From: Bacillota bacterium
Lineage (GTDB): Bacteria > Bacillota > UBA994 > UBA5500
DNA: 64,000 nt
Assembly: GCA_050949055.1 (NCBI GenBank)
Contig: JBMNFA010000009.1
Coordinates: 257,600-321,599 of the forward strand
Direction: 5' to 3'
In this document: positions 1,566-46,746 of the stretch, one piece after another
How the letters are laid out: each line of letters opens with the position of its first letter
How positions within the stretch are numbered: the first letter of the stretch is position 1
Made by a program: the position numbers and the translations under genes
The notes under the pieces: generated by a model
Databases searched by the model: none
Told to the model about the DNA's origin: nothing
The model's input: only the letters and a program-made list of their open reading frames with translations

Positions 1566-2174
1566 CTATTTGCGGAGTTTGGTCAGCATGCGTTGTATAG
1601 TCTTATCGCCAGGCTGGCCGCCCAACATGATACGCATGCCGGACCTGGCCCAACGACTGCCGGCGTCACCAAAGAGAACTGCTCTGGTCAGCCAATAGTG
1701 GGCTTCTTCCCGACTGAAGCGCTCTACCCGCCAGGCGATCAGCTCCACCCGATCCATATCTGCCACCCGCTCCTGCAACTTGAACAGCAGGGACAGCTTG
1801 GCACCAGCCTCATCATCCAAGGGCAGGTTGCCACGGAATTCTATACGGCCATTGCCCAGGAACTGCTGCAGCTCCAGCGGGATACCATCCTCATCGATGA
1901 TTCCGGAAACCATCTGCCTGAGCACTGGCAGGCAGCGTCGCAGCGATTGGCCATAGAGCAACCCTCTGTCTCTCAGGTAAGGCTTCTTTGCCTTCGTCTC
2001 TGACTGAAGTGTCTCATTGGGATTGCAGCGTTCCTTGACCACAAATACCGGGGATGGCTTATCTTTCAAGTCCGTAATGCGCAGAACCCATGGTGAATGG
2101 CTGCATAGCGCCTGCAATCGCCGAGCTAGGTTCTGCCTGTCTGTCAGTGTCTTATTGATTCCCTGCTTGTCCAT
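1566..2174 (-). CDS. hypothetical 202-aa protein between the methyltransferase and the ATPase (possible DUF3780-type accessory subunit)
   Basis: ORF track. Spacings of 13 nt and 12 nt to the flanking genes imply one translationally coupled operon. No catalytic motif recognised. Confidence 0.5.
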   Translation of the reverse strand: MDKQGINKTLTDRQNLARRLQALCSHSPWVLRITDLKDKPSPVFVVKERCNPNETLQSETKAKKPYLRDRGLLYGQSLRRCLPVLRQMVSGIIDEDGIPLELQQFLGNGRIEFRGNLPLDDEAGAKLSLLFKLQERVADMDRVELIAWRVERFSREEAHYWLTRAVLFGDAGSRWARSGMRIMLGGQPGDKTIQRMLTKLRK

Positions 2175-2187
2175 TGCCTTACCTCAC

Positions 2188-5100
2188 TCACTTGTTGTTA
2201 AGTTCTTTGATGAATTTGCAATCTTCTGCTGGATCGTCAATGGCCAGGAAAATGTCCGACTGTTCGTCTGGTTTGGCGACATTGACAAGTACCTCCAGCA
2301 ACTCACCCAGCGCCTGGATTGACTTGGGAGTTGCGTCGCTCAAGGTCAGCCGCAATCTACCACCTGCAGGTAGACCCAAGCCAGATAACTCCAGTTCATT
2401 GATTTGGGAGGAAGCACCGCGGCTGTAGATGCTGCCAAGACGCTTGAGCAGAGGCCACACTTTTTCCATTGCCTCAGGACCGGATAAGCGAACTCCCGGC
2501 CCGCCAGGAGAAGGCTGGTCAGGAGAAGGCTGGCCAGGAGGAAGTTGGCTAGTAGTAAGCCAACCTTTCTCTGCCACCTGTGCCCTGGTAATAAGCACAT
2601 CCTCTGGCTGCACTGTATAAATAGCAGCTGCTGCTCCTCCAACTAATGACTTAGGTTTTTCAGTTTGATCTGGAGTACCTTGATAGGCAAACAAGCTACC
2701 TTGCTGTAGCAAGCCGCCGACATTGTCCTGCCAGTCCTCAGCTGGAACTTCTCCATATTGCTCGGTCACTTGGTCCCGAACGCCCTCAGACGTTGAAGGG
2801 CCGGCACTGCCTAGGGTATAAAGTACCCTTTCCTGCAGCTTGGCTGGGTCAATTTTCTCTCCTTTTGTCCACCCTCTCTGCTTGGCTCCTTGGAGTGTGA
2901 TTAGAGAGTAGCCGCTGTTTAGCAAATCGGCGGAGAATGGCACCCCTGTGTCCTTATCGAAAAACTCGGCAGGTAGCGAACTGGCGGCGTCCCCCATCTT
3001 ATAGATGGCCCAGGTCCCCTTTTCTACCCCAGCTCGTAGCAGAGTGCCCAAAATCCTCGGACTCTCCAACACCGGCCAGTTGCGCATACAGACAAAGTTG
3101 CTGGCTAGCTTCTCAACTGTAACCGTATCGCCTTGAGCGAAGAAGTAGGTCTTCAGGTTGTTTAGGGTGGATTGGCCGGTATGCTGCGCGGTGAGCAGCT
3201 CACCATCCTCCAACAAGCCGCTCTTGATCGCCTCAATGAATGCCCGGCCAGATTCGCCAGAGGCGCTGCGGATCTCTCTGTAGACAATATGACCCGTGGT
3301 CGACGGGTAGTAAAGGCGACGATACGACTGTGCCACCAGCGTTTCCAAGCCCAATCCCTGCTGAGAGAAATGTTCGTGGACCTCCGCTTCTCGTAGGCGC
3401 CCCGGCGAGACGCCGTAAGTCTGCGGCTTGCTTTGTAACATCTGGATAGCGGACACATGCCGTGCGAAATCGAATAGGCGCTGCATAACCCTATCTGCCC
3501 CATTGGCATTCATGCCAGGAAGCTGCGCCTGCCCCATCTCCCCGGTTACTCGAACAGCATCCGGGGTCAGAAGAAAGACCAAATTCTGTTGCTCACGTGG
3601 TATGTTCGGGCCCTTGGTGGTAATCATTGCTTGTACGTCAACTGCCTCTGCCACTGGGCTAACAACAGCCAGAATAGGTCTGCCTTTTCCATCGGGTATG
3701 TGTTCCGGCAATGATACATCGTGCTCTATGTGGAAAAGGTCGGAGCGTTCAGCTATTACCTTTCGGGCAACGTCTGCCAACAGAGACTTGATCTGCTTGT
3801 CATTGACTGTGCGCCGTATGTGAGCCAGCACACTGTTAATGGTCGGTTCCTCGCTGGCAAAATACCGCCCCTGATCAGCGCGCAGATAAAAGGCACTACG
3901 TTTGATCTCTTCTAATGCAACCTGAACTTGGGCCGGAGTTAAGCCGGGCATGCTTACGGCTAATAGGCAGTCAGGTTCGTTTATGCCAAACAGATTTGAT
4001 CCCAGGCCTTGGGTGCGCCCCACCAAGCTGTGTAGAAATACCGTTTGCCAAGTGAATCTATAGAATGAATACCCTTCGGGGTGTGGATTCTCTTGATCAG
4101 CTCGCTCGGCGTTGCTTTGGCCCCCTTCCAAGCTTCCAGTATCGACGCCACCGACATCTGCGTTAAGCACAAACAGCAGATCCGAGCTTCCAGTGCGATT
4201 GAGGATCTCGTTGACCACCCGTTCCGACTTCAGCTCCAGATGGCTGGCGTGAATCATGGGGACAGCATGCTGGTTCTGCCAGAGACTGCGCACTGCTAAA
4301 GCCAACACACGCAGCACACCGCGGGTGCCCTGGAAATTCTCAGCGCCGGCTAATTTGTTATTCAAGAAATCCACCAACGTGGGATGGAAGGGGTAATTGG
4401 CCTGCAAGCGTTGACGATAGTTCTCGCTGCAGGCTTCTTGTGGCAAAAGGTTCTGGTTGCGCCGATATAACTCCATATATTCTGCTGCGGTCTCTTCGGC
4501 GGCCACACGGTCTATCAGTGAGAAGAGACGTTTGGCCAAGACTGCGGAGATCTCTCTGGCCTGTACCGGAGTAACCTGCACCGCATCGCGCGCCACCACA
4601 CTGCTGACATCCCGTATGGCGCGCTCCCCTAACCCAATCGCTTCTTCTGCCGAGATATCCTCGCCTCTCACAAGGCTAATCAACTTAGCCAAGCGATTCG
4701 TCTGCCGAGAGAATGCATCGGCGGCACTAGCTAGGGTGAGTATGATGGCGATTCCGCTATGAGTGCGGGCGTATCCATTCAACGACATCAGGAAAGCAGC
4801 CAGTTGACCGGCGCCATTTGGCCGCGCTGCTTCCAGACGGGCGGCATACTGCGCCAACTCGTCCAACATGATGATCACTTTGCGCCCTGTGAAGACGCGC
4901 TCGAAATAGGTTCGGCCTGGGGCAGCATATGACGTTGCTTCGCTTTCCACTGCGCGGTAAAGCTCTTCTCCTCCTACTTGGTAAGCGATCTCCCCCCACA
5001 AAGTGTAGGGAACTAAAGCATCGCCTTGCGGGCGATGTACGGGAATTTCGTCTCCCGGAACACCTGCCACTATTACTGAGCCAGGGTGCGGCAACAACTG

Positions 5101-5469
5101 CTCTGGAAGCAACTCATCGGTATACCCGGCCAACTTAGACCCTTGATAAGCAATGTGAGTACAAGCGATCAGTGTATGGGTCTTACCGCCACCAAACGCT
5201 GTCTCTAGGCGATGGATGGCCGGAGAGCCTGGATCACCTGCAATGCGACCAAACACTTCAGTCAGCGTTGTCCGAAGGCCCTGTGTAGGATAGGTGGCAT
5301 CGCGAAAGAACAGCTCCGCATCCGTGTAAATGCTATCAATGGGGGCCTTCCCCGAACGATAATACTGCAGGACTGGACCAAGTGATGCAGTAAAGACCTC
5401 GGGGTTAAAGGTACCCCGCAGAATCTCCTCACGCGGCATGCAGCTCTCAAGAACTGACCTCAAGTACAT
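2188..5469 (-). CDS. DUF499/BrxC-like large P-loop ATPase (1093 aa)
   Basis: ORF track. N-terminal Walker-A-like AFGGGKTHTL and Walker-B-like VIIMLDELAQY. Size and architecture are typical of the DUF499 ATPases that pair with DUF1156 methylases. SD AGGAGG precedes the ATG at 5467-5469. Confidence 0.7.
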   Translation of the reverse strand: MYLRSVLESCMPREEILRGTFNPEVFTASLGPVLQYYRSGKAPIDSIYTDAELFFRDATYPTQGLRTTLTEVFGRIAGDPGSPAIHRLETAFGGGKTHTLIACTHIAYQGSKLAGYTDELLPEQLLPHPGSVIVAGVPGDEIPVHRPQGDALVPYTLWGEIAYQVGGEELYRAVESEATSYAAPGRTYFERVFTGRKVIIMLDELAQYAARLEAARPNGAGQLAAFLMSLNGYARTHSGIAIILTLASAADAFSRQTNRLAKLISLVRGEDISAEEAIGLGERAIRDVSSVVARDAVQVTPVQAREISAVLAKRLFSLIDRVAAEETAAEYMELYRRNQNLLPQEACSENYRQRLQANYPFHPTLVDFLNNKLAGAENFQGTRGVLRVLALAVRSLWQNQHAVPMIHASHLELKSERVVNEILNRTGSSDLLFVLNADVGGVDTGSLEGGQSNAERADQENPHPEGYSFYRFTWQTVFLHSLVGRTQGLGSNLFGINEPDCLLAVSMPGLTPAQVQVALEEIKRSAFYLRADQGRYFASEEPTINSVLAHIRRTVNDKQIKSLLADVARKVIAERSDLFHIEHDVSLPEHIPDGKGRPILAVVSPVAEAVDVQAMITTKGPNIPREQQNLVFLLTPDAVRVTGEMGQAQLPGMNANGADRVMQRLFDFARHVSAIQMLQSKPQTYGVSPGRLREAEVHEHFSQQGLGLETLVAQSYRRLYYPSTTGHIVYREIRSASGESGRAFIEAIKSGLLEDGELLTAQHTGQSTLNNLKTYFFAQGDTVTVEKLASNFVCMRNWPVLESPRILGTLLRAGVEKGTWAIYKMGDAASSLPAEFFDKDTGVPFSADLLNSGYSLITLQGAKQRGWTKGEKIDPAKLQERVLYTLGSAGPSTSEGVRDQVTEQYGEVPAEDWQDNVGGLLQQGSLFAYQGTPDQTEKPKSLVGGAAAAIYTVQPEDVLITRAQVAEKGWLTTSQLPPGQPSPDQPSPGGPGVRLSGPEAMEKVWPLLKRLGSIYSRGASSQINELELSGLGLPAGGRLRLTLSDATPKSIQALGELLEVLVNVAKPDEQSDIFLAIDDPAEDCKFIKELNNK

Positions 5470-11683: not shown

Positions 11684-12213
11684 AGGGTATCACTCCTTTT
11701 TGGGCGTTGTATGTGGGTGTACTGGGAACCGGACCAGAGTTTTGTCAGGGATAGAATACGACAGCGAGCGGGCAATTCCCTTGCGAAAGAAGACCTTTCG
11801 CCGCTCATACTCCAGTTGCCCCGGCCGATCCTGGCGGCATGGCGGAGCTGGATCATCGTCGGGTCGCGCTGGAGGTAGTTCGTGCCATAGCCTGCCACAT
11901 TCGCGCCGATACTTAGCAAGACCAACAGGGGCAGCTCGCGAATGCGGAAAAACCGAAAACACCCTCTCTGCTAATTCAGCAGGAATCTTGCTCTCAGATG
12001 ACTAATTAAGTAGCGACCACAAGTATCTCCGAGTCTTCCAGTCCTAAGGATGTCATCTATGGAAGGAAGGCCGTTAGGGTGGCAGGGGAAACCCGGTCGC
12101 CTCCCGTCTGGAAAGGAGTAATCTGCGGCCGCTGACGCATGGCTTAGCTTGCGTCCGTTTGCCTTGCGCCTCCTTTTCAGAGCATGTTTGCTACTTGGAA
12201 AGGAGGTTTTTGC

Positions 12214-12735
12214 TTGCGCGGGAAATCGCCTGCTCTGGCGCGGGGCGCAATTCTGCTTTGCCTGCTGCTTGCTGTCGGCATGGCGTTAGTCTACCCCCGC
12301 CCGGGGCTGCCCTTTGAGGTGGCAGAGGGCGAAAAGGTGCGGCGGCTGAAGCAACACGAAGTTGATGATATCGTGGGGGTCTACCTGGCAGAAAGAGATG
12401 CGGGCAGTCGCCTGGTGCAAATCGTCAGCAGCCAAGGGTTTAAAGGCCTGATGCAGTTTCAGGTGGATATAGACCTGAACACCGAACAAATCAGCCAAGT
12501 ACGGGTGTTGTCCCAACAGGAGACCGAGGATTATGGCGGCTACGTCACCGAAGGCTGGTTCTTGGACAGATTTGTCGGCAAGAACGTCGGCACCAAGCTA
12601 AGATTAGTCAAGTTAGCGGCCAGCTCGCCAGAAGAAGTGGTGGCCATCACCGGAGCAACCGTCACCAGCCGGGGGGCTCTGGATGCGGTAAACAAATGCC
12701 TAGATAACTATCAGAGACTAAAACGGGAGGATTGA
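12214..12735 (+). CDS. membrane-anchored FMN-binding-domain protein (ApbE-type flavinylation motif)
   Basis: Start TTG at 12214 after SD AAAGGAGG (the ORF track starts earlier at 12184). N-terminal TM segment, then an FMN_bind domain with VVAITGATVTSRGALDAV (S/T-G-A-T/S flavinylation motif). Confidence 0.7.
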   Translation: MRGKSPALARGAILLCLLLAVGMALVYPRPGLPFEVAEGEKVRRLKQHEVDDIVGVYLAERDAGSRLVQIVSSQGFKGLMQFQVDIDLNTEQISQVRVLSQQETEDYGGYVTEGWFLDRFVGKNVGTKLRLVKLAASSPEEVVAITGATVTSRGALDAVNKCLDNYQRLKRED

Positions 12736-13850
12736 TGATCGTGAAGTTGACCAGGAAAGCGTTAGTCTATCTGTTGCTGATGGGCCTATTGGGCCTGCTG
12801 CTTACGGGCTGCTCCAGCCCGGCACCGATCGATGAGCCCAACAACCAGGAAGATGAAGGCGTAATAGCGTTCATTGGCCTGCCGGATGGCGACAAGGAGA
12901 TCGCCGTGGCTGATCTGAAGGAAATGGAGCCATATGAGACTGAGGCGTTAGGGATCAGCTCTTCGGGCGAAGAGGCCACCCATGAGGTGAAGGGCGTGCT
13001 ATTGGCCGATCTGCTGACCGACTGGGGAGTGGAGCAGCAAAGTCTGCAGAGCATCCGTGCGGTGGCCAAGGATGGCTATGCCATGGAACTGCCGGGCGAG
13101 ATTCTGCAGGGCGAAGTGATCCTGGCCTATGAATACGATGGAGAGCCCCTGTTTGAAGAAAGCGGCCCCATCCGCTTGATCGTGCCCAATCAGCGCTCCA
13201 TGTATTGGCTGAGGGGACTGGCCAGCCTGGAGATCAGCGGCGGAGGCAGCGGAGCGACTGCAGAGACCGACGCAACTAGAATTGTGTTCATCGAGACAGC
13301 TATCGGTTTGGTGCCCCATTATGACTACACCTATTACGAGAGCAATGACCAAGCAGTGAAGGTGGACGAGCTGTTTGCCAAGCTGGGCATAGAGGCCACC
13401 GAAGGCACTGCAGCCCTGTGCGCAGCCGACGGCTTCGAGAAGAACGAGCAGGTAGCCACCCTGCGGCAAGGCTATCTCAAGTTCACTGGAGAAGCAGCAC
13501 CGCTGTTCCTCTCCCCCGACCTGCCCAAGGGCATGCATGTGAAGCAGATCCTGTGGATGGCCGTGGAAGATACGGCGCTGGTTTCCTTCGTGCATGCGGG
13601 CGAGGCGTGGGAACAGAAGACGGTGGGAGACATCTCCGGCGTGCCGCTGACCGCCATTTTAGAGCAGGTTGGGGTACAGTCGGATGTGGGCTATATTCTC
13701 AAGGCGAGTGATGACTACACGGTGGAAATCGAGGCGGCCGACGCGGCCGATGGGCTGGTCTACATCAAGGATGACGTTGTGCGGGTCAGCTTCAGCCAGC
13801 TGCCCAAGAGCAGCAGCGTCAAGGGCCTGCTGAGTATCGAAGCCAAGTAG
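12732..13850 (+). CDS. lipoprotein with two tandem sulfite-oxidase-fold (YedY/MsrP-like) domains lacking the Mo-ligand Cys
   Basis: Lipobox LLTGCSS. Domain 1: VKGVLLADLL...AVAKDGYAMELP...VILAYEYDGEPLFEESGPIRLIVPNQRSMYWLRGLASLEI, parallel to the SO-family pattern WTGVxLxDLL...LAYEMNGEPL...PLRLVVPGWYG..KWL..IEV. The CAGNRR cysteine position reads GISSSG. A second weaker copy lies at residues ~200-372. Confidence 0.6.
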   Translation: MMIVKLTRKALVYLLLMGLLGLLLTGCSSPAPIDEPNNQEDEGVIAFIGLPDGDKEIAVADLKEMEPYETEALGISSSGEEATHEVKGVLLADLLTDWGVEQQSLQSIRAVAKDGYAMELPGEILQGEVILAYEYDGEPLFEESGPIRLIVPNQRSMYWLRGLASLEISGGGSGATAETDATRIVFIETAIGLVPHYDYTYYESNDQAVKVDELFAKLGIEATEGTAALCAADGFEKNEQVATLRQGYLKFTGEAAPLFLSPDLPKGMHVKQILWMAVEDTALVSFVHAGEAWEQKTVGDISGVPLTAILEQVGVQSDVGYILKASDDYTVEIEAADAADGLVYIKDDVVRVSFSQLPKSSSVKGLLSIEAK

Positions 13851-14144
13851 CGGGCTGCAGCGAGCAGCTCCTATTCCTCAAAACCTCCTGCTATTCCCAG
13901 CGAGCTAGTAGCCTAGACCCTTCGTTGCACTCAGGGTGACAGTCGCTAGGCGACTGTCTACAGCGATTGTCATTCCGAGCGCAAGCGATGAATCTGGATC
14001 CTTCCGCGAACTTTATGCTCGCCTGTCGAAGTGCTCAAGATGACTCGGCAAAGCCTGGCAGGAGAGCCTTCACCCACGATAACCGTTCACAGGCCGGGAA
14101 CATTGTTTCCGCTTTAGAGCCAAATAAGGAGGAGACATCGAATA

Positions 14145-14645
14145 ATGAAGAAGAGTATATCCATTGCGATCTTGCTGTTGGTCACCGCGTTGGTCTTCAC
14201 CGCCTGCCAGCAGCCGGCGCAGCCGACTCCCAATCCCGATGAGCAGCAGCCCGGCGATGATGTGCTGCAGTGGGCAGTCACCTTTGTTAAAGCAGACGGC
14301 AGCACTGTGGAGCTGACCCACGCAGACGACCTGGAGCTGGTGGAAATCGAGGCTACCAAGGCACGCAAGGATGGCAGCGAAGAGAAGCAGCAATGGAAAG
14401 GAGTGCCGCTGCAGGCTGCCTTGGATTATCTGGAGTTGACGGAGTTTGAGGTAATCGCCGCTGAATCGGCTGACGGATATTCGGTAGATCTGGACAAGGA
14501 AATGGTAGCCGACGAAGGGACCATCATTGGACTGGAGCTGAACGGCGAGCCGTTGGCGGAAGACGCTGGCCCAGCCCAATTGGTGGTGGCCAGCCAGCGC
14601 TCTAACTTCTGGATTAAGCAGCTGAGCAAGATCACGCTCAAGTAG
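14145..14645 (+). CDS. lipoprotein with one sulfite-oxidase-fold domain lacking the Mo-ligand Cys (paralog)
   Basis: Lipobox VFTACQQ. WKGVPLQAALDYL...AAESADGYSVDL...IIGLELNGEPLAEDAGPAQLVVASQRSNFWIKQLSKITL. SD AAGGAGGAG upstream. Confidence 0.6.
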   Translation: MKKSISIAILLLVTALVFTACQQPAQPTPNPDEQQPGDDVLQWAVTFVKADGSTVELTHADDLELVEIEATKARKDGSEEKQQWKGVPLQAALDYLELTEFEVIAAESADGYSVDLDKEMVADEGTIIGLELNGEPLAEDAGPAQLVVASQRSNFWIKQLSKITLK

Positions 14646-14656
14646 CGTGGGCAAAG

Positions 14657-15241
14657 ATGATTAGCCGCGCGCTCAGGCGTTTTTCACTATTTCAGTTGGT
14701 CATTCTGGCTTTGGTGGCCGCCCTGGGGGTGGCCTCCAAGCCAGTGGTGGTTCCGTTGGCCCATATGATCACCGGCCCGCTGATGATTCCCGGCGGGGTG
14801 TTGGCCGGTGGCTTTTATATGCTGTGGATCGTGCTGGGGGCTGGCTTAATGGATCGCCGGGGTGGGGGGACGCTGATCAGCCTGGTACAGGCTATCCTGA
14901 TCGTCTCGCTGGGCCTCTATGGCACCCACGGCATCGTCAGCTTCCTGACCTATCTGGCACCGGGTCTGGCTGTCGACCTGGTGTTCTGGCCGGGCGGCCG
15001 TTGGCGGGGCAGTTCCCTCGCCTTCTTTACCGCAGGGCTGATGGCCAACATCTGCGGCAGTTATCTGGTTAACTTAGTGTTCTTCCGCCTGCCCTGGATT
15101 CCGTTGCTGCTCAGCTTAAGCACCGCTGCTTTATCTGGAGGGCTGGGTGGTCTGATTGCTTATGCCGTGGTGCACAAGCTGCGGCAGACGGGATTGATGG
15201 GTTTAGGCGTCAGCGAGAATGACAAGTCTTCAGTTGAATGA
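14657..15241 (+). CDS. polytopic membrane protein, probable ECF-transporter S (substrate-capture) component
   Basis: 194 aa with about 6 predicted TM helices. Size, topology and position next to the EcfA1-A2-T genes fit an S component. Confidence 0.5.
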   Translation: MISRALRRFSLFQLVILALVAALGVASKPVVVPLAHMITGPLMIPGGVLAGGFYMLWIVLGAGLMDRRGGGTLISLVQAILIVSLGLYGTHGIVSFLTYLAPGLAVDLVFWPGGRWRGSSLAFFTAGLMANICGSYLVNLVFFRLPWIPLLLSLSTAALSGGLGGLIAYAVVHKLRQTGLMGLGVSENDKSSVE

Positions 15242-15337
15242 AGCGAAGCAAATAGAACCGTCTCCGTTGTTTCGTAAATGGAGCGAGACAAAAAGAACCG
15301 TCCCTTTTGTTCCGGTGGAGAGGAGGGGTAAGTGGCG

Positions 15338-16828
15338 ATGAAGAGGATAATGGCAGTTGTGGCGCTGGTGGCCATGCTGGGCATCGGCTATTGGCTGGGG
15401 CAGAGCCATGGTATTCGGAAGGGTGCAAACCTGCCTAGTACGGCGCTGACGATTGTTGGCGATGTGGCGACGACGGTGTGGGTGGAATCGCTGCAAGGCA
15501 TGCAGCGGGAGCTGGAGACGGTCACTCTGGAGAAGGGATCTATCCAGGCGATTCCTCTGCAATCGTTAGTTCAGTTGGCGGAGCCGCTAGCGGATAAGAA
15601 CAAGGTGGTCCTACGGGGAGTGGACGGGGTGGCCGCCGAGCTGAGCCAACTGGAAGGCGCATACATCACCTATTCGGCGGAGCACGGCTGGCATGCGAAA
15701 AATCCCAACCATCCGGTGAGCAGCAACATCAAACACCTGCAGGATATCATTGTGGTGGCCGAGGGATTCTCCTGGGACCGGGGCATCAACATCATGACCT
15801 CGGAGGAGAACCTGGACAACTTCACCGTAGGACAGCTGCTCAACGACGAACTATCGCTGGTGCGGATAGTGGACGGCACGGCCACGGTGGAGCATGAAGG
15901 ACAACGGATCAGCTCGTCCGCAGTGGTCTTCAAGCGGATGCTGGGGCTCGGCCAGCTGCTGGAGCGAGTTGAGCTGCCGGAGCCAGAGAACCTGGCGGTG
16001 ATGGGTGAAAACGGCGCTTTCGTCATGGTGGACATGTCCATGGGCGGTTATCTGGAGGTGGGCGAGCACTCGGTGAACTATGTGGTCCTCGGCGACTACA
16101 GCCAGACGGTGAGGGACGTGCGAGCGATGATGTTCAACGCGCCGGAACTGTCCATCATGCAGACCTTTGATGACACGGTGCGGCGGTTGGAGAACGGCGA
16201 GAAGGTGATGATCGCCTTCTTGGACGGGCTTAGCTATCGGCAGTATCGCCGGGCCGTGGAGACTGGAATGGCACCCTATCTGCAATCGCTGCCGCCGGCA
16301 GAGAAGGCGCTGAGCATATACCAGCCGGTGACCAACGCCGGGTTTGCCGCCATGATTACCGGGCAGCCTCCGGGGGTGAATGGGGTGCACTCGCGCAGCC
16401 AACGGGGATTGAACGTGCCCAGCATCTTCGGACGGGCGGTGGAGCTGGGCCAGAAGGCCATCCTGGTGGAAGGCAATATTCAGATCCTGGACACCGAGGT
16501 GGATCCCCGCCTCAATCTGGACCAGAACCAGCAGCATGGCACCGATGACGAGGTGTTTGCCTCCGGGTTGCAGGCCATTGCTGAGCAGCCGGATCTGCTG
16601 ATGGTGCATTTCCACGGCATCGACGACTGCGGGCATCAGTTCGGACCGCTGGCAGAGCAGACGCTGCAGAAGATTCAGCAGGTGGATTCCTACCTGCAGG
16701 CGCTGGCCGCAGAGTGGGACGGCACCATCATCGTGGTGGCCGACCACGGCATGCACGTCGAGGGTGACGGCGGCAGCCACGGGCAGGCCCGGGCAGAGGA
16801 TTTTGTGGTGCCATACATCGTGAGATAA
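15338..16828 (+). CDS. membrane-anchored fusion: N-terminal SO-fold-like domain + type I phosphodiesterase/nucleotide pyrophosphatase (alkaline-phosphatase superfamily)
   Basis: ATG at 15338 after SD GGAGAGGAGGGG (the track starts at GTG 15332). N-terminal TM anchor. C-terminal MIAFLDGLSYRQY...HFHGIDDCGHQFGP...VVADHGMH (NPP/AlkP metal-site motifs). Confidence 0.6.
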   Translation: MKRIMAVVALVAMLGIGYWLGQSHGIRKGANLPSTALTIVGDVATTVWVESLQGMQRELETVTLEKGSIQAIPLQSLVQLAEPLADKNKVVLRGVDGVAAELSQLEGAYITYSAEHGWHAKNPNHPVSSNIKHLQDIIVVAEGFSWDRGINIMTSEENLDNFTVGQLLNDELSLVRIVDGTATVEHEGQRISSSAVVFKRMLGLGQLLERVELPEPENLAVMGENGAFVMVDMSMGGYLEVGEHSVNYVVLGDYSQTVRDVRAMMFNAPELSIMQTFDDTVRRLENGEKVMIAFLDGLSYRQYRRAVETGMAPYLQSLPPAEKALSIYQPVTNAGFAAMITGQPPGVNGVHSRSQRGLNVPSIFGRAVELGQKAILVEGNIQILDTEVDPRLNLDQNQQHGTDDEVFASGLQAIAEQPDLLMVHFHGIDDCGHQFGPLAEQTLQKIQQVDSYLQALAAEWDGTIIVVADHGMHVEGDGGSHGQARAEDFVVPYIVR

Positions 16829-16877
16829 TGCAAAAACGGGGACAGTCCCCATTTTTGCATTAGAGGAGGATGAGCGG

Positions 16878-17390
16878 ATGAAGAAGGTTCTAATCGGCGT
16901 GGTGGGTCTGTTGGTGGTGGTGATCGCCATCACTGGATATGTGAACTGGCGGCAGAGCGCCGCCCTGCGGGAAGCTCAGGCCAACGCTACGCTGGCAGTG
17001 ACTTGGGGCGATGACAACTCGGCCACTTTGAGCATGCAGCAGGTGCAGGCACTGCCGGCGGAAGAATTCGCGGTGGTGCAGCGGAGCAGCGACGCGCCGG
17101 ATAGCGATCAGGTGTTTAAGGGCGTGGCGCTAAAGGTGGCGCTCTCGGAACAAGGGGTGCCCTTGGACGATAGCAGCCTGGTGACGGTGAAAGCGGCAGA
17201 TGGTTATGCGGTTGCCCTCACCGGCAGCGAAGTGCTGCAGGATGAAAACGTCTATTTGGTCTACCAACGGGGAGGCGAGCCTCTGGGCACCAAGGCATCG
17301 GGTGGAACCGGCCCCTTCCAGCTGGTCATTCGCCAGGATACCTACGCCCAGCGTTGGTGCAAGTTTGTGAGCGAGATTCAGGTAAAATGA
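16878..17390 (+). CDS. membrane-anchored sulfite-oxidase-fold domain protein lacking the Mo-ligand Cys (paralog)
   Basis: N-terminal TM anchor. VFKGVALKVALSEQGV...KAADGYAVAL...YLVYQRGGEPLGTKASGGTGPFQLVIRQDTYAQRWCKFVSEIQV. Confidence 0.55.
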   Translation: MKKVLIGVVGLLVVVIAITGYVNWRQSAALREAQANATLAVTWGDDNSATLSMQQVQALPAEEFAVVQRSSDAPDSDQVFKGVALKVALSEQGVPLDDSSLVTVKAADGYAVALTGSEVLQDENVYLVYQRGGEPLGTKASGGTGPFQLVIRQDTYAQRWCKFVSEIQVK

Positions 17391-18073
17391 AGCCGCTAAT
17401 CGAGGTCAAGCAGTTATCCTTTAGCTACAGTAAGCAGTCCCCTCCCCTGTTTGAGCAGGTCGATCTGGAAATCTTCCCAGGGGAAGTGGTGGCGTTGCTG
17501 GGCAAGAGCGGGGCCGGCAAGAGCACCCTTTGTCATTGCCTGGCCGGCATCATTCCCCACCTGATCAAGGGGCAGATCAGCGGCCAGGTGCGGGTGGACG
17601 ATCTGCTCACCACGGACAGCAATCCTCCCACCCTGGCCCAAAGGGTGGGGGTTGTGTTTCAGGATCCGGATATGCAGCTGTTCATGCCCACGGTGGAGGA
17701 CGAACTGGCTTTTGGACTGGAGAATCTTTGCCTGCCGCCCCAGGAAATTGGGGAACGGATTGAGCAATGCCTACAGTTGGTGGGCATGAGCGCCAAGCGT
17801 CTGTGTCACCCCCATCAGCTCTCGGGGGGAGAGAAGCAGCGGGTGGCGCTGGCTGCTGTGTTGGCCATGAACCCCCAGGCGTTGATTTTGGACGAGGCCT
17901 TCTCCCAGCTGGACCGCGCCGGTCGCGGCGCCTTGAAGCAGATTATGCTACAGCTTAAGGACGCAGGCAAGGCGATAGTGATGGTGGAGCACGATTGGTC
18001 CAATCTGGACATCGCAGATCGGGTGCTGGTGCTGAAGGAGCGGCAACTGCAGCCTTTTCGGGGTGAACTATGA
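17387..18073 (+). CDS. ecfA: ECF-transporter ATPase component EcfA1 (ABC ATP-binding protein)
   Basis: ATG at 17387 overlaps the upstream stop (ATGA). Walker A GKSGAGKST, signature LSGGEKQRVALA, Walker B LILDEA. Confidence 0.85.
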   Translation: MKPLIEVKQLSFSYSKQSPPLFEQVDLEIFPGEVVALLGKSGAGKSTLCHCLAGIIPHLIKGQISGQVRVDDLLTTDSNPPTLAQRVGVVFQDPDMQLFMPTVEDELAFGLENLCLPPQEIGERIEQCLQLVGMSAKRLCHPHQLSGGEKQRVALAAVLAMNPQALILDEAFSQLDRAGRGALKQIMLQLKDAGKAIVMVEHDWSNLDIADRVLVLKERQLQPFRGEL

Positions 18074-18753
18074 GCGAGTGCAAATCGGTGATTGTTGCTC
18101 GGGACGTTAGTTTCAGCTATCCCAAGGGCCCCCCGCTGTTCGAACGGCTCAACTTGACGCTGTATCAGGGCGAGTTTACGGCCATCGTGGGCGAAAACGG
18201 CAGCGGCAAGACGACACTGGGCAAGTTGCTTTGTGGCATCCTGCGCCCCGCCGGGGGCAGCGTGAGCATTTTGGGGGAGGAGAGCCATAACCTCAGCCTG
18301 GGGAGCATCGGGCAGAAGATCGGCTATCTGTTTCAGAACCCGGATCAGCAGCTGTTTGCGCTGACGGTGCGGGAGGAGCTCTGCTGGCCGCTGCAGCTGC
18401 GGGGCGAAGATGCGGAGTCGGTGCGGCGGAAGGTGGGGCAGGTGCTGGGAAGGTTCCAGCTTGCGGGCTTGGAGGACAAGCTGCCCTTCCGCTTGAGCCG
18501 TGGGGAGAAACAACGGTTGGTGCTGGCGGCGATTATGCTGCAGCGGCCCAGCTACCTGATTTTGGACGAGCCCACCAGCAGCCTGGATCAGGAGCGGCGG
18601 GCAGGATTGTCCCAAGTGCTGCAGGAGTTGCAGGCAGAGGGCATCGGCATGGCTGTGATCACCCATGATTCAGATTTTCTGCAGCAGCATGCACAGCGGG
18701 TGATCCAACTGCGGGAAGGGAGGGTGGTGGCCGATGAACGGGTCTCGCCTTGA
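18070..18753 (+). CDS. ecfA: ECF-transporter ATPase component EcfA2
   Basis: GENGSGKTTL, LSRGEKQRLVLA, LILDEPTSSLD. Start overlaps the EcfA1 stop. Confidence 0.85.
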   Translation: MSECKSVIVARDVSFSYPKGPPLFERLNLTLYQGEFTAIVGENGSGKTTLGKLLCGILRPAGGSVSILGEESHNLSLGSIGQKIGYLFQNPDQQLFALTVREELCWPLQLRGEDAESVRRKVGQVLGRFQLAGLEDKLPFRLSRGEKQRLVLAAIMLQRPSYLILDEPTSSLDQERRAGLSQVLQELQAEGIGMAVITHDSDFLQQHAQRVIQLREGRVVADERVSP

Positions 18754-19465
18754 CCCCAGAACCAAGCTGGTGATCGTGCTGTCCATCTCTTCCCTGGGTG
18801 TGTTCATCGGCGACCCCTGGGTGCTGCTGGGTGTAGCCGGCGTATCCTGGCTGCTGGCCACCCTGCTGGGCGGCAACCCTGGGGGCGCCGCCCGGCGCTG
18901 GCGCCGGATGCTGTGGCTGTTTCTGCCCATCGTCTTGATGCAGAGTGTGTTTGCGCCTGGGGGCATGCGGTTATTAGGCATCGGCTCGCTGACCCTGCTC
19001 AGCAGCGGCGGACTGCTGAAGGGGTTGGCCATGCTCTGCCGGCTGCTGATTGTGGTGGTGGCCGCCAGCATCATGACCACGTCCAACTCGCGCGATGTGG
19101 TGCAGGGACTGATCCAGTGGAAGTTGCCTTATGAGATCGCCTTTATGGTCTCGCTGGCGGCGCGCTTCTTGCCCATGCTGGGCGAGGAAGTGCGTGACTC
19201 GCTGACGGCGCTGCAGCTAAGAGGCATCGAGCCAGAGGCTCTGCCGCTACGGAAACGCCTGCAGCTCTATTCGTACCTGCTGATGCCGGTGATGGTCAGC
19301 ACGGTGATTCGGGCGGAGCAGCTTTCATTGGCCATGGAGATGCGTGCCTTTCGCGCCTTCCCCACCCGTACCAGCCACCGCAGCTTGCAGCTTAGGGGAG
19401 CGGATTATGCCTGGATGCTAGGCAGCGCGGCGGTGACGGTGGCGGCCTTGGTTGCCCTGCGCTAG
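18734..19465 (+). CDS. ecfT: ECF-transporter transmembrane T component (EcfT/CbiQ family)
   Basis: 243-aa polytopic protein with conserved arginine-containing coupling helices (ARFLPML...RGIE). Overlaps the ecfA2 end. Confidence 0.75.
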   Translation: MNGSRLDPRTKLVIVLSISSLGVFIGDPWVLLGVAGVSWLLATLLGGNPGGAARRWRRMLWLFLPIVLMQSVFAPGGMRLLGIGSLTLLSSGGLLKGLAMLCRLLIVVVAASIMTTSNSRDVVQGLIQWKLPYEIAFMVSLAARFLPMLGEEVRDSLTALQLRGIEPEALPLRKRLQLYSYLLMPVMVSTVIRAEQLSLAMEMRAFRAFPTRTSHRSLQLRGADYAWMLGSAAVTVAALVALR

Positions 19466-19565
19466 AGCGGGTGTGAGAAAATAATCCGTAAGCGCTGGCG
19501 CTCAGGGTGTCCGCATCGTGTCATTCCGAGCGCAGCGAGGAATCTATACGGAGGTGAACAACAAG

Positions 19566-20321
19566 ATGCGTATCTTTTCGGTTTCCGGCATCAGCAAGTC
19601 CGGAAAGACGACTACCATAGAAGAGATCATCAAAGAACTACGGCGGCGGCGATACACCGTGGGCAGCATCAAGGACATCCACTTCGAGGCCTTTGCCATC
19701 GATGGCCCGTCCACCAACACCGCCCGCCACCGCCGGGCGGGATCAGAGCTGGTCACCGCCTGGGGGCTGGCCGAGACAGATGTTCTCTTCCCCACCCGGC
19801 TGCCCCTGGAGCAACTGCTCCGCTTCTATAGCCAGGACTTTGTGATCATCGAAGGTTTTGCCGAAGGGCCCATCCCCAAAATCGTCACGGGGCATTCGCT
19901 GGAACGGGTGGATGAGCGGTTGGACGACCTGACCTTCGCTATTTCCGGACGCATTGCCGCCGGTATGGATGAGTACCGGGGGCTGCCGGCGCTGAGCGCA
20001 CTCACCCAGGTGGCCGAACTCTGCGACCTGATTGAAGAAAAAGTGTTTGAACGGCTACCCCACTTTCCTGGAGAGTGTTGCGCCGCCTGCGGGCAGGATT
20101 GTGTGCAGCTGGCCGCTCGCATCCTCAAGGGGGAAGCCCAGCGCAGTGACTGCCGCCTGGTGGCCGAGCGGCAGAAGGTGGAGCTGTGCATCGACGGCGA
20201 GCCGATCAAGATGGTGCCCTTTGTGCAGAGCATCCTCTATAACGCGGTGCGGGGCGTGGTGACGGAGTTGGACGGTTACCAGCCGGGCAAGAAAGTGGAG
20301 ATCAAGATTGGCTCCATTTGA
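19566..20321 (+). CDS. mobB: MobB-like P-loop protein (molybdopterin-guanine dinucleotide biosynthesis protein B) with a Cys-rich C-terminal extension
   Basis: ATG 19566 after SD GGAGG (the track starts earlier). MRIFSVSGISKSGKTTTIEEII...VGSIKDIHFEAFAIDGPSTNTARHRRAGS parallels the MobB P-loop and GxDSxRHRxAG block. The C-terminal about 100 aa carry GECCAACGQDC. Confidence 0.7.
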   Translation: MRIFSVSGISKSGKTTTIEEIIKELRRRRYTVGSIKDIHFEAFAIDGPSTNTARHRRAGSELVTAWGLAETDVLFPTRLPLEQLLRFYSQDFVIIEGFAEGPIPKIVTGHSLERVDERLDDLTFAISGRIAAGMDEYRGLPALSALTQVAELCDLIEEKVFERLPHFPGECCAACGQDCVQLAARILKGEAQRSDCRLVAERQKVELCIDGEPIKMVPFVQSILYNAVRGVVTELDGYQPGKKVEIKIGSI

Positions 20322-21018
20322 AGACCTGCTGGACCCGGCTGATTGGGAGCAACTGGAGGTCTGCCGCTATCAAGTGGTGCGGCAGTTCCGCAGCAAGAGA
20401 AACCAGGTCTGTCTGGTACGGGTAAGCCGAACAGACGGGACCGCAGGGGAGCTGGTGGTGAAGCGGGCGGGAGAGCAGGTTGTGGATTTGAGTCGCGAGG
20501 CAAGTCTGCAGGCGCTGCTTCATCAACGGGGGCTAGCGGTTCCCCGGGTGCTGCTGGCAAAACCCCGCTGCCTGGTGATGCAATACATCACCGGAGAGAC
20601 CCTGGTAGACTATCTGGAGCAGGTGGAACGGGAATACCCCCTCTGCCCAGAAACGCTGCAGAGCGCAGTACGCCCGCTAGCTCAGCAACTAGCCGCCTGG
20701 TTGCAGCTGTTTTATCGGATCACCGCGGACAGCTTTGGCCGCGCCATGATCAGGGGCGACGTCAACCTGCGCAACTTCCTCGTCCGCGATGATAAAATCT
20801 TTGGAGTGGATTTTGAGGATGCCCGGCCGGGTGACATGGCCGAGGATGCAGGCCGCATCCTGGCCTTTGCCCTCACCTACGACCCGGCTTTCACCCCCTG
20901 GAAGCGAGCGATCGTAGAGGAGCTGTCCCTGGCTTTTCGGGAGGTGCTGCAGCTGGCGGCAAAGCCCCTGCAGCGCGCGATGGAGGCTGAACTGCAGGCA
21001 ATTCGCGAACGAAGATAG
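20308..21018 (+). CDS. protein-kinase-like / phosphotransferase-fold protein
   Basis: GDVNLRNFLVRDDKIFGVDFEDA (catalytic-loop-like D-x-N...N and DFE/DFG-like). Start overlaps the mobB end. Confidence 0.5.
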   Translation: MAPFEDLLDPADWEQLEVCRYQVVRQFRSKRNQVCLVRVSRTDGTAGELVVKRAGEQVVDLSREASLQALLHQRGLAVPRVLLAKPRCLVMQYITGETLVDYLEQVEREYPLCPETLQSAVRPLAQQLAAWLQLFYRITADSFGRAMIRGDVNLRNFLVRDDKIFGVDFEDARPGDMAEDAGRILAFALTYDPAFTPWKRAIVEELSLAFREVLQLAAKPLQRAMEAELQAIRERR

Positions 21019-45841: not shown

Positions 45842-45932
45842 TGGCGGAGAGAGAGAGATTCGAACTCTCGGAGCAGGGTCACTGCTCACCCGCTTTCGAG
45901 GCGGGCGCCTTAAACCACTCAGCCATCTCTCC
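45842..45932 (-). tRNA. tRNA-Ser (anticodon CGA), CCA encoded
   Basis: Acceptor GGAGAGA/UCUCUCC, anticodon loop CUCGAAA, long variable arm, GCCA end. Confidence 0.8.
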
Positions 45933-45933
45933 G

Positions 45934-46398
45934 CTAAGTGTTTTGACGCAGTTCCAGGAAAAACTTGCGCAGGAGCTGGCTGCTGGCATCCGCCAATACG
46001 TCAGGAATCACTTCCACCTGGTGGTTCAACCGTTGGTGTTGCACCAGGTTCAGCACACTGCCGCAAGCGCCTGCCTTGGGATCGGCTGCCGCATAAACCA
46101 AGGTAGGAATGCGGGCCAAAACGATGGCACCGGCGCACATGGCGCAGGGCTCCAGCGTGACGTAGAGGGTGCAACGGGTTAAGCGCCACCCACCCAGATG
46201 CTGATTGGCCAATCGAATGGCTAGCAACTCGGCGTGGGCCGTGGCATCGTGGGTCGTCTCGCGCAGGTTATGCGCTCTGGAGATGATCTCACCGTCGCGC
46301 ACGATCACCGCACCGATAGGCGTTTCACCAAGGGCGTAGGCTAACTTGGCCTCGTTCAGTGCCTCGCGCATGAAAAGCTTGTGTTGCTCCACGCGCAA
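45934..46398 (-). CDS. tadA: tRNA-specific adenosine(34) deaminase TadA
   Basis: HAELLAI...LYVTLEPCAMCAGAI (CDA zinc motif HAE...PCxxC), 154 aa. TTG start with AGAGGG SD. Confidence 0.88.
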   Translation of the reverse strand: MRVEQHKLFMREALNEAKLAYALGETPIGAVIVRDGEIISRAHNLRETTHDATAHAELLAIRLANQHLGGWRLTRCTLYVTLEPCAMCAGAIVLARIPTLVYAAADPKAGACGSVLNLVQHQRLNHQVEVIPDVLADASSQLLRKFFLELRQNT

Positions 46399-46498
46399 AA
46401 CCCCTCTTTCGCTGCCGAAATTCGTGCGCTACGCACAGACAGCTCTAATTCAAGTTGCAGAAGTGCCTATATGCAGACCATTGAAGGTTAACTGCCAG

Positions 46499-46574
46499 TG
46501 GTGCACCCGGAGGGAATCGAACCCCCGACACGCGGTTTAGGAAACCGCTGCTCTATCCCCTGAGCTACGGATGC
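46499..46574 (-). tRNA. tRNA-Arg (anticodon CCU)
   Basis: 76-nt cloverleaf, anticodon loop UUCCUAA, CCA encoded. Confidence 0.85.
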
Positions 46575-46661
46575 AAGCCATCAAAGAAAACAAAAAACAT
46601 TTGCCGCCCAGAAAAAGAAAAGCGAAACAAAAAGAACCGTCCCTTTTGTTTCAGTAAGGAG

Positions 46662-46738
46662 TGGCGCGCCCGGCAGGATTCGAACCTGCGACCACCGGAT
46701 TCGTAGTCCGTTACTCTATCCAGCTGAGCTACGAGCGC
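46662..46738 (-). tRNA. tRNA-Arg (anticodon ACG; the TadA substrate)
   Basis: 77-nt cloverleaf, anticodon loop CUACGAA, CCA encoded. Confidence 0.85.
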
Positions 46739-46746
46739 ATGAGAAA

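Follow-up and report, generated by a model that had tools for sequence, protein, structure and literature searches.

Organisation of the locus

The window analysed here is a stretch of 64,000 nt from a Bacillota bacterium (UBA994; UBA5500; assembly GCA_050949055.1, contig JBMNFA010000009.1, forward-strand positions 257,600–321,599). It contains a cluster of genes, g1–g11, with a riboswitch directly upstream at the head of the operon (Table 1). An earlier sequence-only note had described an 11-gene cluster here; all 11 genes are confirmed, and its family assignments stand. The stop codon of g6 overlaps the likely ATG of g7 (17387), and g10 and g11 overlap by 14 nt. The likely start of g1 is the TTG at 12214, an in-frame ATG at 12184 having no Shine-Dalgarno sequence, while that of g10 is the ATG at 19566, the NF011064 alignment beginning at residue 17.

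Table 1. Features of the operon and its leader
Feature	Positions	Strand	Assignment	Evidence
Riboswitch	12015-12134	+	Moco/Tuco (Wco) aptamer without P3 stem	Rfam RF01055, 73 bits (gathering score 36), E 1e-15, full length
Hairpin	12168-12207	+	expression-platform hairpin, 3' of aptamer	TTTTTG next
g1	12214-12735	+	membrane-anchored extracytoplasmic FMN-binding protein, RnfG/NqrC-like	FMN_bind PF04205, E 2.6e-13
g2	12732-13850	+	lipoprotein, N-terminal half a Cys-less SUOX-like domain	Oxidored_molyb PF00174, E 1e-14, residues 81-169
g3	14145-14645	+	lipoprotein, one Cys-less SUOX-like domain	PF00174, E 1e-9
g4	14657-15241	+	ECF substrate-specific (S) component, YkoE-like family	PF09819, 35.3 bits (cut-off 25.2)
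g5	15332-16828	+	membrane anchor, degenerate SUOX-like domain and NPP/alkaline-phosphatase-type phosphodiesterase	type I phosphodiesterase PF01663, E 9.6e-15
g6	16878-17390	+	single-pass membrane-anchored Cys-less SUOX/PruR-like domain	PF00174, E 3.4e-7
g7	17354-18073	+	EcfA-type ABC ATPase	PF00005, E 1.7e-28; best NCBIfam match TIGR04520 ECF_ATPase_1, E 2.3e-63
g8	18070-18753	+	second EcfA-type ABC ATPase	PF00005, E 4.6e-32; best NCBIfam match TIGR04520, E 3.5e-51
g9	18734-19465	+	EcfT transmembrane coupling component	PF02361 CbiQ, E 1.6e-27; TIGR02454
g10	19518-20321	+	cytoplasmic MobB P-loop protein with FeS-type Cys motif and C-terminal domain	PF03205, E 2.1e-18
g11	20308-21018	+	cytoplasmic kinase, APH/RIO/Bud32 fold	PF01636, E 7.2e-12

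A Moco/Tuco riboswitch heads the operon

The strongest clue to the operon is its Moco/Tuco riboswitch, which was absent from the earlier note. In the window aptamer the P3 columns of RF01055 are deleted, and a purpose-built model, R1, recovers the same element with 102 bits. P3 is absent from 61 of 62 aptamers, and an RF01055 element lies upstream of the homologous clusters in all loci checked with Rfam. Searched with R1, 43 of the 56 loci with upstream DNA have the riboswitch at the operon head, and it was not found in the other 13. The P3-less class has been linked to tungsten-cofactor metabolism by Regulski et al., a ligand assignment based on correlation (PMC2408646).

The 5' arm of the expression-platform hairpin, CTCCTTTT (12170–12177), has two alternative partners, the Shine-Dalgarno sequence GGAAAGGAGG (12197–12206) or GGAAAGGAG at the 3' side of the aptamer (12110–12118). 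Folding of 12100–12225 gives −49.8 kcal/mol (z −2.9) with the hairpin in both the MFE and centroid structures; switching is not visible in the thermodynamic fold alone. The three-part layout, with the hairpin 5' arm complementary to aptamer GGAAAGGAG, recurs in 18 of 62 related leaders, compared with 0.6% of shuffles. The design is terminator-style and agrees with the leader of the C. aceticum tungstate transporter operon tupABC, and this likeness suggests that the cofactor represses the operon, its binding probably shutting down expression. The aptamer family is the one found in Moco/Tuco-riboswitch regulons (moaABCDE, modABC, tupABC; Regulski et al. 2008), here as the P3-less variant, but in contrast to those regulons the genes of this operon correspond to no biosynthetic step or oxyanion transporter known so far.

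A SUOX-like domain resembling PruR

The repeated domain, which the earlier note had assigned to the sulfite-oxidase (SUOX) fold, does adopt it in the AlphaFold model of g6 (pLDDT 94.3). The top Foldseek matches of this model are PruR structures (7kom, E 1.5e-8; 7kp2; 7kou), followed by SUOX enzymes, and at E ≤ 1e-4 only PruR and SUOX-family structures are matched, in place of the transcobalamin-like DUF4430 fold raised as an alternative. Five copies had been claimed, four of which are firm: g2 (N-terminal half), g3 and g6 exceed Pfam's own threshold, and the g5 N-terminus matches the g6 profile with an hhalign probability of 95.6% (E 1.2e-8). The fifth, the C-terminal half of g2, is weak, with a partial motif repeat, a 40-column hhalign match (probability 59%) and a Pfam E of 0.052. 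Loss of the molybdenum-ligand cysteine, also proposed earlier, holds on realignment, the loop being deleted: when the domain is aligned to SorA by profile, some 21 residues are missing precisely where SorA has its 'CSGNSRG...' segment, and the C.GN.R motif occurs in none of 185 homologous SUOX-like proteins from 64 loci. The lipoproteins g2 and g3 have lipoboxes LTGC and FTAC, as read from their sequences, mature g3 contains no cysteine, and the SUOX-like proteins in general carry signals of the Sec or lipoprotein type, not Tat signals. The copy retained in essentially every locus is g6, with orthologues in 65 loci, nearly all of them 168–174 aa long.

PruR, known from Agrobacterium, Vibrio and Klebsiella (7kou, 7kom, 7kp2, 7rkb), is like the g6-type proteins small, exported, nearly all SUOX fold and truncated at the cysteine hairpin. 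It is the top match of g6 in sequence profile as well as in structure (g6-family profile to 7kom, E 3.1e-5), and the position of its pterin-stacking Tyr is conserved, D-G-Y of g6 aligning with N-D-Y of PruR. In Proteobacteria PruR binds tetrahydromonapterin, held by N102 and Y104, and takes part in signalling together with DcpA-type diguanylate cyclases; its truncated pocket probably could not accommodate whole Moco (PMC11194511). By analogy with this small pocket, the domains described here may bind a smaller pterin. Unlike PruR, they are found in Bacillota in multiple copies, under Moco/Tuco riboswitch control and genetically tied, sometimes fused, to an ECF transporter.

The ECF transporter and accessory enzymes

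The model of g4 (pLDDT 87.7) has 5edl, ThiT, RibU and BioY as its top PDB folds, and both ATPases, g7 and g8, have ECF ATPases as best NCBIfam matches. The closest solved S component, 5edl, we take to be the thiamine-binding YkoE and hence a binder of small heterocycles. A word-index search gave 860 homologues of g4, and a search of 1.84 billion proteins gave 274 cluster representatives; fusions join the S component to a g6-type domain (seven representative clusters) or to the phosphodiesterase (three). Import by the g4/g7/g8/g9 module is supported at the family level only. The arrangement is shared with dedicated (group I) ECF vitamin transporters such as YkoEDC (5edl): the S component has their Pfam family and fold, and one operon controlled by a cofactor riboswitch encodes it with two EcfA and one EcfT. 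Classical ECF systems are not known to use an extracytoplasmic binding protein, whereas here a membrane-anchored binding-domain protein is always present. MobB, a kinase, lipoproteins and a phosphodiesterase at the cell surface accompany it. The literature searched yielded no ECF system for a Mo/W cofactor.

The metal-ligand and nucleophile motifs of the phosphodiesterase g5 can be read from its sequence (FLDG, PVTNAG, DDCGH, ADHGMH, SHG), and g5 is predicted to be outward-facing throughout. The MobB protein g10 matches TIGR00176 (79.8 bits, cut-off 76.2) and NF011064 MobB/FeS (E 2.1e-40). For the kinase g11 NCBIfam gives weak Bud32 matches only; it is closest to Bud32/RIO-like proteins, and it may not act on small molecules.

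Conservation and genomic context

That the cluster genes are conserved together, as had been claimed, is shown by a core order that recurs across some 64 loci from anaerobic Bacillota and runs S component, (phosphodiesterase), sulfite-oxidase-like protein, EcfA, EcfA', EcfT, MobB, kinase. Unbiased ORF clustering of 64 loci retained only these families, namely SUOX-like proteins (185 copies), the S component (64 loci), EcfA (62), EcfT (60), MobB and the phosphodiesterase (49 each) and the kinase (47). Kinase and phosphodiesterase do not co-occur constantly; in one locus (L059) the NPP enzyme is missing and a calcineurin-type surface phosphoesterase is present. Neighbours in related loci include the tungsten enzyme AOR, TupABC, MoeA and FdhD. 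In C. aceticum, which presumably has the full de novo cofactor pathway, moeA lies near the cluster. Importers of the FecCD/Peripla_BP_2 class, which takes up B12, haem and siderophores, stand under the same Moco/Tuco riboswitch in related loci.

In related species SUOX-like domains are also found on S-layer-anchored giant proteins and on surface proteins with SLH domains, propellers or a Shr-like haem-receptor domain. In the haem relay of Gram-positive bacteria, Isd/Shr NEAT receptors feed an ABC importer, and the present system may be analogous in placing many copies of one domain at different depths (S-layer and cell-wall proteins, lipoproteins, transporter), the Shr-like domain on one related protein adding to the likeness. 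Unlike that relay, the fold here is SUOX-like rather than NEAT and the transporter is of another class, and transfer of cargo would be by analogy only.

A putative system for pterin cofactor acquisition

From fold, regulation and context, we consider it moderately probable that the operon serves to acquire a molybdopterin-type cofactor or a precursor. Points that weigh against this reading are the small pocket of PruR, the cofactor genes of C. aceticum, the Bud32/RIO-like affinity of the kinase, the inconstant pairing of kinase and phosphodiesterase, a TupA-like protein in the Pelotomaculum operon, an off-switch polarity derived solely from sequence complementarity, and the 13 loci in which no riboswitch was found. 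The earlier note had offered cofactor uptake or salvage as one hypothesis, and this is now favoured: the link to a Mo/W cofactor is independently supported because a Moco/Tuco riboswitch heads the operon here and in 43 related loci.

The tungsten context suggests another cargo. In Pelotomaculum a TupA-like tungstate-binding protein lies in the same operon, immediately before the ECF genes; in locus L016 the gene of a TupA-like binding protein follows the riboswitch and precedes those of S, A, A' and T. With a riboswitch and leader designed as in tupABC, and the tungsten tie of the P3-less class (PMC2408646), this would fit an ECF importer of the metal itself (tungstate or molybdate, or a thio or mineral form of it), with surface proteins and a flavin chain acting outside the cell to mobilise or condition it. 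We regard this as unlikely: the S component falls with the YkoE/ThiT-like class for organic vitamins rather than with the CbiM/NikM class for metals, the partner conserved throughout adopts a pterin-binding fold, and Tup is already encoded next door in the same genomes. Oxyanion uptake would also leave the extracellular nucleotide phosphodiesterase, the cytoplasmic kinase and MobB without a role.

The flavin-binding parts raise the question of redox chemistry. The g1 protein, with RnfG and NqrC as best NCBIfam matches, carries a flavinylation-type motif (TGATVTS), and FMN_bind is fused to a SUOX-like domain in 10 related loci. An extracytoplasmic SUOX-fold protein paired with a membrane electron donor (FMN_bind/NapH-like, 24 of 64 loci) recalls YedY/MsrP-MsrQ and NapH-like flavinylated systems, and in Listeria FAD is exported through an ECF module. 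It is improbable in our judgement, but the operon could encode an extracytoplasmic redox module resembling MsrPQ or flavin-EET systems, the ECF module exporting cofactor to load redox-active SUOX-like proteins; having Sec or lipoprotein rather than Tat signals, these would have to be loaded outside the cytoplasm. Most NapH-like flavinylated systems have no known function (PMC8238504). Yet the catalytic Cys hairpin is deleted in 185 of 185 copies, there is no Mo-ligand cysteine, Tat signal or MsrQ as in YedY/MsrP-MsrQ, and the flavin parts are optional, FMN_bind and NapH-like proteins together being missing from about 60% of loci. ApbE, Ndh2 and EetAB are not among the conserved neighbours in the 64 clustered loci, and no ApbE gene was found among the window ORFs tested, as noted earlier. 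The leader is built like that of an uptake operon, and the cofactor repression it indicates would not suit genes that use the cofactor; phosphodiesterase and kinase are also left unaccounted for. The same scarcity of flavin parts, the absence of ApbE, Ndh2 and EetAB among the conserved neighbours, and a regulator that senses Moco/Tuco rather than flavin, speak against a stand-alone flavin electron-transfer module, the other hypothesis of the earlier note, as the main function.

Uptake or sensing of a non-molybdopterin pterin or heterocycle (e.g. of the neopterin/monapterin type), with the riboswitch responding to a ligand other than Tuco/Moco, would suit the truncated pocket of the nearest structures, PruR, which bind small non-Moco pterins, and an aptamer ligand assigned by correlation, but is very improbable in a context that is consistently one of W/Mo cofactor (MobB in the module; AOR, Tup, MoeA and FdhD nearby), and among the families conserved in the 64 clustered loci none belongs to folate, biopterin or diguanylate-cyclase genes.

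In the favoured cofactor-acquisition scheme, the cargo could be molybdopterin, Moco/Tuco, a dinucleotide form, or a precursor such as cPMP. The operon would be turned on when the cellular cofactor pool is low, the cofactor-bound P3-less riboswitch probably stopping expression otherwise. Outside the membrane, the SUOX-derived domains lacking the Cys hairpin would bind cargo in the manner of PruR and hand it inward, as in a haem relay, by way of S-layer giants, the lipoproteins g2 and g3 and the anchored g6. The outward-facing phosphodiesterase g5, with its own SUOX-like copy, would trim nucleotide or phosphate groups, and flavinylated FMN-binding proteins, where present (g1; elsewhere NapH-like partners), may keep the pterin/dithiolene reduced or re-reduce it, as the gene fusions suggest. 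The trimmed compound would be taken up by the ECF module g4/g7/g8/g9, in keeping with its families, after which the kinase g11 and MobB g10 might re-phosphorylate it and pass it to cofactor-finishing enzymes. No description of a system of this kind, or of such cofactor scavenging by bacteria, was found in the literature searched.

Gene content of the operon

The 11 closely spaced genes of the cluster fall into the families given in the table, and the assignments made in the earlier note from the sequence by eye are upheld by Pfam and NCBIfam. By family and motif, g1 is predicted to be a flavinylated FMN-binding surface protein. The motifs FLDG, PVTNAG, DDCGH, ADHGMH and SHG, read off the g5 sequence, correspond to intact metal ligands and the Thr nucleophile, and together with the family match mark g5 as a predicted phosphodiesterase of the NPP/alkaline-phosphatase superfamily. 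The top NCBIfam matches of g7 and g8 are ECF ATPase models, with scores under the equivalog cut-offs. Foldseek comparison of the g4 model (pLDDT 87.7) with the PDB gave S components as nine of the ten best matches, the closest fold being 5edl (TM 0.71), then ThiT, RibU and BioY. The operon thus resembles a dedicated ECF module, in which an S component of six-helix fold, two EcfA-type ATPases and one EcfT are encoded together.

The g2-g3 gap has no Rfam match; within it, TTGTCATTCCGAGCGCAAGCGATGAATC resembles TGTCATTCCGAGCGCAGCGAGGAATC, immediately upstream of g10, and the pair may represent a small intergenic repeat. Terminator-like sites inside the operon are no commoner than in shuffles. Elsewhere, the window carries a gene pair encoding DUF499/DUF7744 and DUF7680 proteins, LarC-like and LarB-like genes, and a cluster of five tRNA genes.

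Features of the cluster, its leader and related loci (window positions unless a related locus, L, is named)
Feature	Position	Strand	Description	Evidence
Riboswitch RF01055 (Moco/Tuco)	12015-12134		full-length, ~80 nt upstream of g1	Rfam, 73 bits against gathering score 36; model positions 1-135
Leader hairpin	12168-12207		precedes likely TTG start at 12214
Cluster	12184-21018	+	11 closely spaced genes	ORFs, Pfam, NCBIfam
g1		+	FMN-binding protein	PF04205; motif TGATVTS
g2, g3		+	lipoproteins	PF00174 molybdopterin-binding domain, above Pfam threshold
g2-g3 gap	13851-14144		295 nt, untranslated
g4		+	ECF S component	PF09819, 35.3 bits against cut-off 25.2
g5		+	type I phosphodiesterase, N-terminal anchor	PF01663, 55.4 bits against 23
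g6	16878-17390	+	membrane-anchored protein, uncleaved N-terminal helix	PF00174, above Pfam threshold
g7, g8		+	ECF-type ATPases	PF00005 in each
g9		+	EcfT	PF02361
TGTCATTCCGAGCGCAGCGAGGAATC	19519-19544
g10		+	MobB/FeS protein	PF03205, E 2.1e-18; TIGR00176, 79.8 bits against equivalog cut-off 76.2
g11		+	APH/RIO-fold kinase	affinities Bud32/RIO-like
DUF499/DUF7744 protein (1093 aa) beside DUF7680 protein	1566-5469	-
Five-tRNA gene cluster	45845-46999	-
LarC-like (Ni_insertion) and LarB-like (AIRC) genes	58180-60069	-
Riboswitches before FecCD/Peripla_BP_2 importers	L001 (C. aceticum) 19017-19136; L012 3441-3559, 3605-3716; L014 6957-7076, 7127-7240
Aptamer with P3 hairpin	L066 8653-8791
Second riboswitch, Geosporobacter ferrireducens	L058 15551-15673		directly after cluster
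NAD-type aldehyde dehydrogenase	L058 15790-17415			PF00171
Riboswitch-like elements	L021 17412-17523; L064 15537-15634		before ferredoxin and AOR genes
Giant surface proteins	L019 14599-19137; L047 14670-19799; L049 14732-20395; L025, L056; L016 6455-9913

The repeated domain has the fold of PruR and sulfite oxidase

Foldseek comparison of the AlphaFold model of g6 (pLDDT 94.3) with the PDB placed the pterin-binding PruR proteins first (7kom, E 1.5e-8, then 7kp2, 7kou and 7kos), ahead of sulfite oxidase, YedY, SoxC and SorT, the matches 3hbg, 1xdq, 2xts and 6y0k having E-values of 1e-6 to 1e-5. This result settles the predicted fold of the repeated domain as that of sulfite oxidase (SUOX), as the earlier note had proposed. 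Its named alternative, the transcobalamin-like DUF4430 fold, is rejected, since every Foldseek match with E<=1e-4 is a PruR or SUOX-family protein. Remote relatives of g6 were reached by profile searches rather than from the single sequence, with which phmmer against the PDB gave nothing meaningful and a first word-index homologue search returned only 4 proteins. The five copies of the domain originally counted reduce to four, in the N-terminal half of g2, g3, g6 and, in degenerate form, the N-terminus of g5 (hhalign probability 95.6%); the second half of g2 matches only partially, and a full fifth copy there is not established.

With a g6-only profile the top PDB sequence match is PruR 7kom, and the conserved D108-G-Y110 of g6 falls opposite N-D-Y in that structure. 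These positions are those of N102 and Y104 in A. tumefaciens PruR, which hold the pterin (PMC11194511) and, with W160, make up the pterin sandwich. The g6-PruR alignment ends short of R159-W160 of g6, a pair nearly invariant in alignment A4, and the tryptophan beside C161 is probably the counterpart of the pterin-stacking W160 of PruR. C161 itself, in the motif QRWCK, is kept in most g6 orthologues and is not universal.

The SUOX molybdoenzymes (sulfite oxidase, YedY/MsrP and SorA) share this fold, but possess a Mo-ligating Cys hairpin and, in the periplasmic members, Tat export, neither of which is found here. Relative to SorA the family profile has a ~21-residue deletion exactly at the CSGNSRG cysteine hairpin, the C.GN.R motif occurs in none of the 185 SUOX-like copies from 64 loci, and 29 single-domain copies lack Cys altogether after residue 35. 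The earlier note had already remarked the loss of the Mo ligand in the cluster's own copies. As for export, lipoboxes are present in g2 and g3 while a twin-arginine motif is absent from both, a loose RR pattern occurs in only 6/185 copies, and the SUOX-like proteins carry lipoprotein or Sec-type signals. Periplasmic SUOX enzymes are exported by Tat with the cofactor loaded in the cytoplasm; with signals of the lipoprotein or Sec type, the SUOX-like proteins cannot be loaded in this way. PruR is likewise a small exported protein of SUOX fold whose Cys hairpin is truncated, although the DcpA-type GGDEF/EAL regulator that partners PruR is absent from the conserved neighbours here.

In g2, g6 and a giant surface protein of Pelotomaculum (L016), the SUOX-like domain has in its N-terminal half a further match, to NF041762, a 'GEGP motif-containing diheme protein'; this is a hint that other bacteria pair haem electron carriers with Cys-less SUOX-like domains.

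A riboswitch of the proposed tungsten-cofactor type heads the operon

The Moco/Tuco riboswitch upstream of g1 was overlooked in the earlier note. Its P3 stem is missing (the P3 columns are deleted), and 61 of 62 related aptamers have only 0-1 nt at the P3 position. Such P3-less variants track tungsten-cofactor metabolism and are the proposed tungsten-cofactor subclass (Regulski et al., PMC2408646). The sole aptamer with an 18-nt hairpin at the P3 position (AGCTAAATTTATTTTAGC, L066) is, because of that hairpin, classed by its predicted structure as Moco-type and not Tuco-type; it heads a reduced cluster without MobB and without the phosphodiesterase.

In the hairpin downstream of the window aptamer, CTCCTTTT is paired with the Shine-Dalgarno of the likely start codon, and the arm CTCCTTT has an alternative partner in the aptamer 3' end, GGAAAGGAG. 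The hairpin looks like a control element that would sequester the Shine-Dalgarno, and also resembles a terminator; a promoter/terminator consensus scan of the leader found nothing. With a covariance model built by us from six aptamers, most loci gave a riboswitch match on the same strand as the cluster; of the 56 loci with upstream DNA, 43 have it at the head of the operon. Many leaders have, downstream of the aptamer, a hairpin in which the 5' arm is complementary to GGAAAGGAG and the 3' arm is a repeat of that sequence; a U-run is often present. By a strict exact-match test, which is conservative, this layout was caught in 18/62 leaders against 0.6% of shuffles. Since the leader of C. aceticum tupABC has the same construction, we infer an off-switch, by which the operon, like the tungstate importer, would be on when cofactor is scarce.

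Conservation and neighbourhood of the module

A word-index search found hundreds of S-component homologues in Clostridia, and an exhaustive search only 274 matches among 1.84 billion representatives, marking the family as compact. Comparison of the contexts of three homologues and 63 genome loci gave a shared order, [SUOX-like lipoproteins]-S-[phosphodiesterase]-SUOX-like(g6)-A-A'-T-MobB-kinase, where S, A, A' and T are the S component, the two EcfA ATPases and EcfT. Among the carriers are Clostridiaceae, Natronincolaceae, Tissierellales, Lutispora, Sedimentibacter, Geosporobacter, Halothermothrix, Pelotomaculum, Christensenellaceae, Oscillospiraceae, Lachnospiraceae and Holdemania. When every ORF from the 64 loci entered an unbiased clustering, the module families alone came out as conserved, with A-A'-T order kept in at least 60 loci. 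ECF transporters usually have no extracytoplasmic solute-binding protein. Here, in contrast, the S component goes together with the membrane-anchored, binding-fold g6-type protein at essentially every locus, and the two are fused in seven representative clusters; three clusters have the S component fused to the phosphodiesterase.

FMN_bind and SUOX-like domains are fused in ten loci, a group with an adjacent NapH-like Fe-S/FMN_bind protein, and FMN_bind adjoins g2 in thirteen. The FMN-binding surface protein is a likeness to Listeria-type flavin extracellular electron transfer (EET), but ApbE (whose absence from the window had been noted earlier) or FmnB, Ndh2, EetA/EetB and quinone genes were found neither among the window ORFs tested nor among the conserved neighbours of the 64 loci. 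The flavin-based electron-transfer function once entertained for the cluster is therefore rejected as its core, the flavin parts being optional and the remaining EET genes missing.

Neighbours of related loci include aldehyde:ferredoxin oxidoreductase (AOR, a tungsten enzyme), a Tup-like operon and MoeA, while the Pelotomaculum operon has FdhD and a TupA-like protein inside. P3-less riboswitches also head FecCD/Peripla_BP_2 type-II ABC importers. At L012 and L014 two tandem aptamers stand ahead of a longer operon, which at L012 runs kinase, FecCD, ATPase, binding protein, then the ECF module. In Geosporobacter ferrireducens, a second riboswitch precedes an aldehyde dehydrogenase gene whose product may be expressed at cofactor scarcity and replace AOR without requiring tungsten. 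The riboswitch-like elements before ferredoxin and AOR genes at L021 and L064 have no obvious terminator of the uptake-operon type, for which reason these genes may be regulated differently.

In related species there are also giant surface proteins (~1150-1890 aa), in which the SUOX-like domain occurs together with SLH anchors, Reg_prop/SGL propellers, Fn3-associated domains or a Shr-like haem-receptor domain; the majority have a riboswitch of their own.

A proposed model for pterin cofactor acquisition

Acquisition of a molybdopterin-type pterin is the simplest account in which each of the conserved parts has a role. The Cys-less SUOX domains would capture and relay the pterin, the surface phosphodiesterase would trim the cargo, flavin-driven reduction of the pterin could be an optional step, and ECF import would be followed by handling by the kinase and MobB. 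No kinase is known to be required in de novo Moco synthesis, where GTP supplies the phosphate. The conserved kinase is thus in keeping with salvage of a form that has lost its phosphate, a role that is uncertain given its Bud32/RIO-like affinities. The module could instead take up or sense a pterin other than Moco, or serve a redox enzyme on the extracytoplasmic side that is loaded through export of the cofactor, but either reading accounts for fewer of the parts than does pterin cofactor acquisition; the same is true of metal oxyanion uptake.

To our knowledge no bacterial Moco/Tuco transporter has been described, and the cofactor is treated as one that each bacterium has to produce itself, being too labile to share. 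In the literature searched we came across no system, ECF or other, by which bacteria take up Moco/Tuco; according to a review of pterin signalling no system for pterin transport is known, and a survey of flavinylation (PMC8238504) does not mention the module. We consider it possible, at slightly less than even likelihood, that this is the first pathway for uptake and salvage of the W/Mo pterin cofactor in bacteria, an ECF importer dependent on extracytoplasmic cargo binders derived from sulfite oxidase, fed by cell-wall receptors in some species, with a flavin reductase on the outer face repairing the oxidation-prone pterin before import.

The proteins are candidates for handling and stabilising Moco, of relevance to Moco-deficiency therapy and to tungstoenzyme expression in foreign hosts. 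If the riboswitch-controlled uptake system, which is conserved across many anaerobic Bacillota, is real, it would run counter to the rule that ECF transport proceeds without binding proteins, would give a function to Cys-less SUOX domains annotated 'molybdopterin-dependent oxidoreductase', and would imply cross-feeding of W/Mo pterins in anoxic communities.
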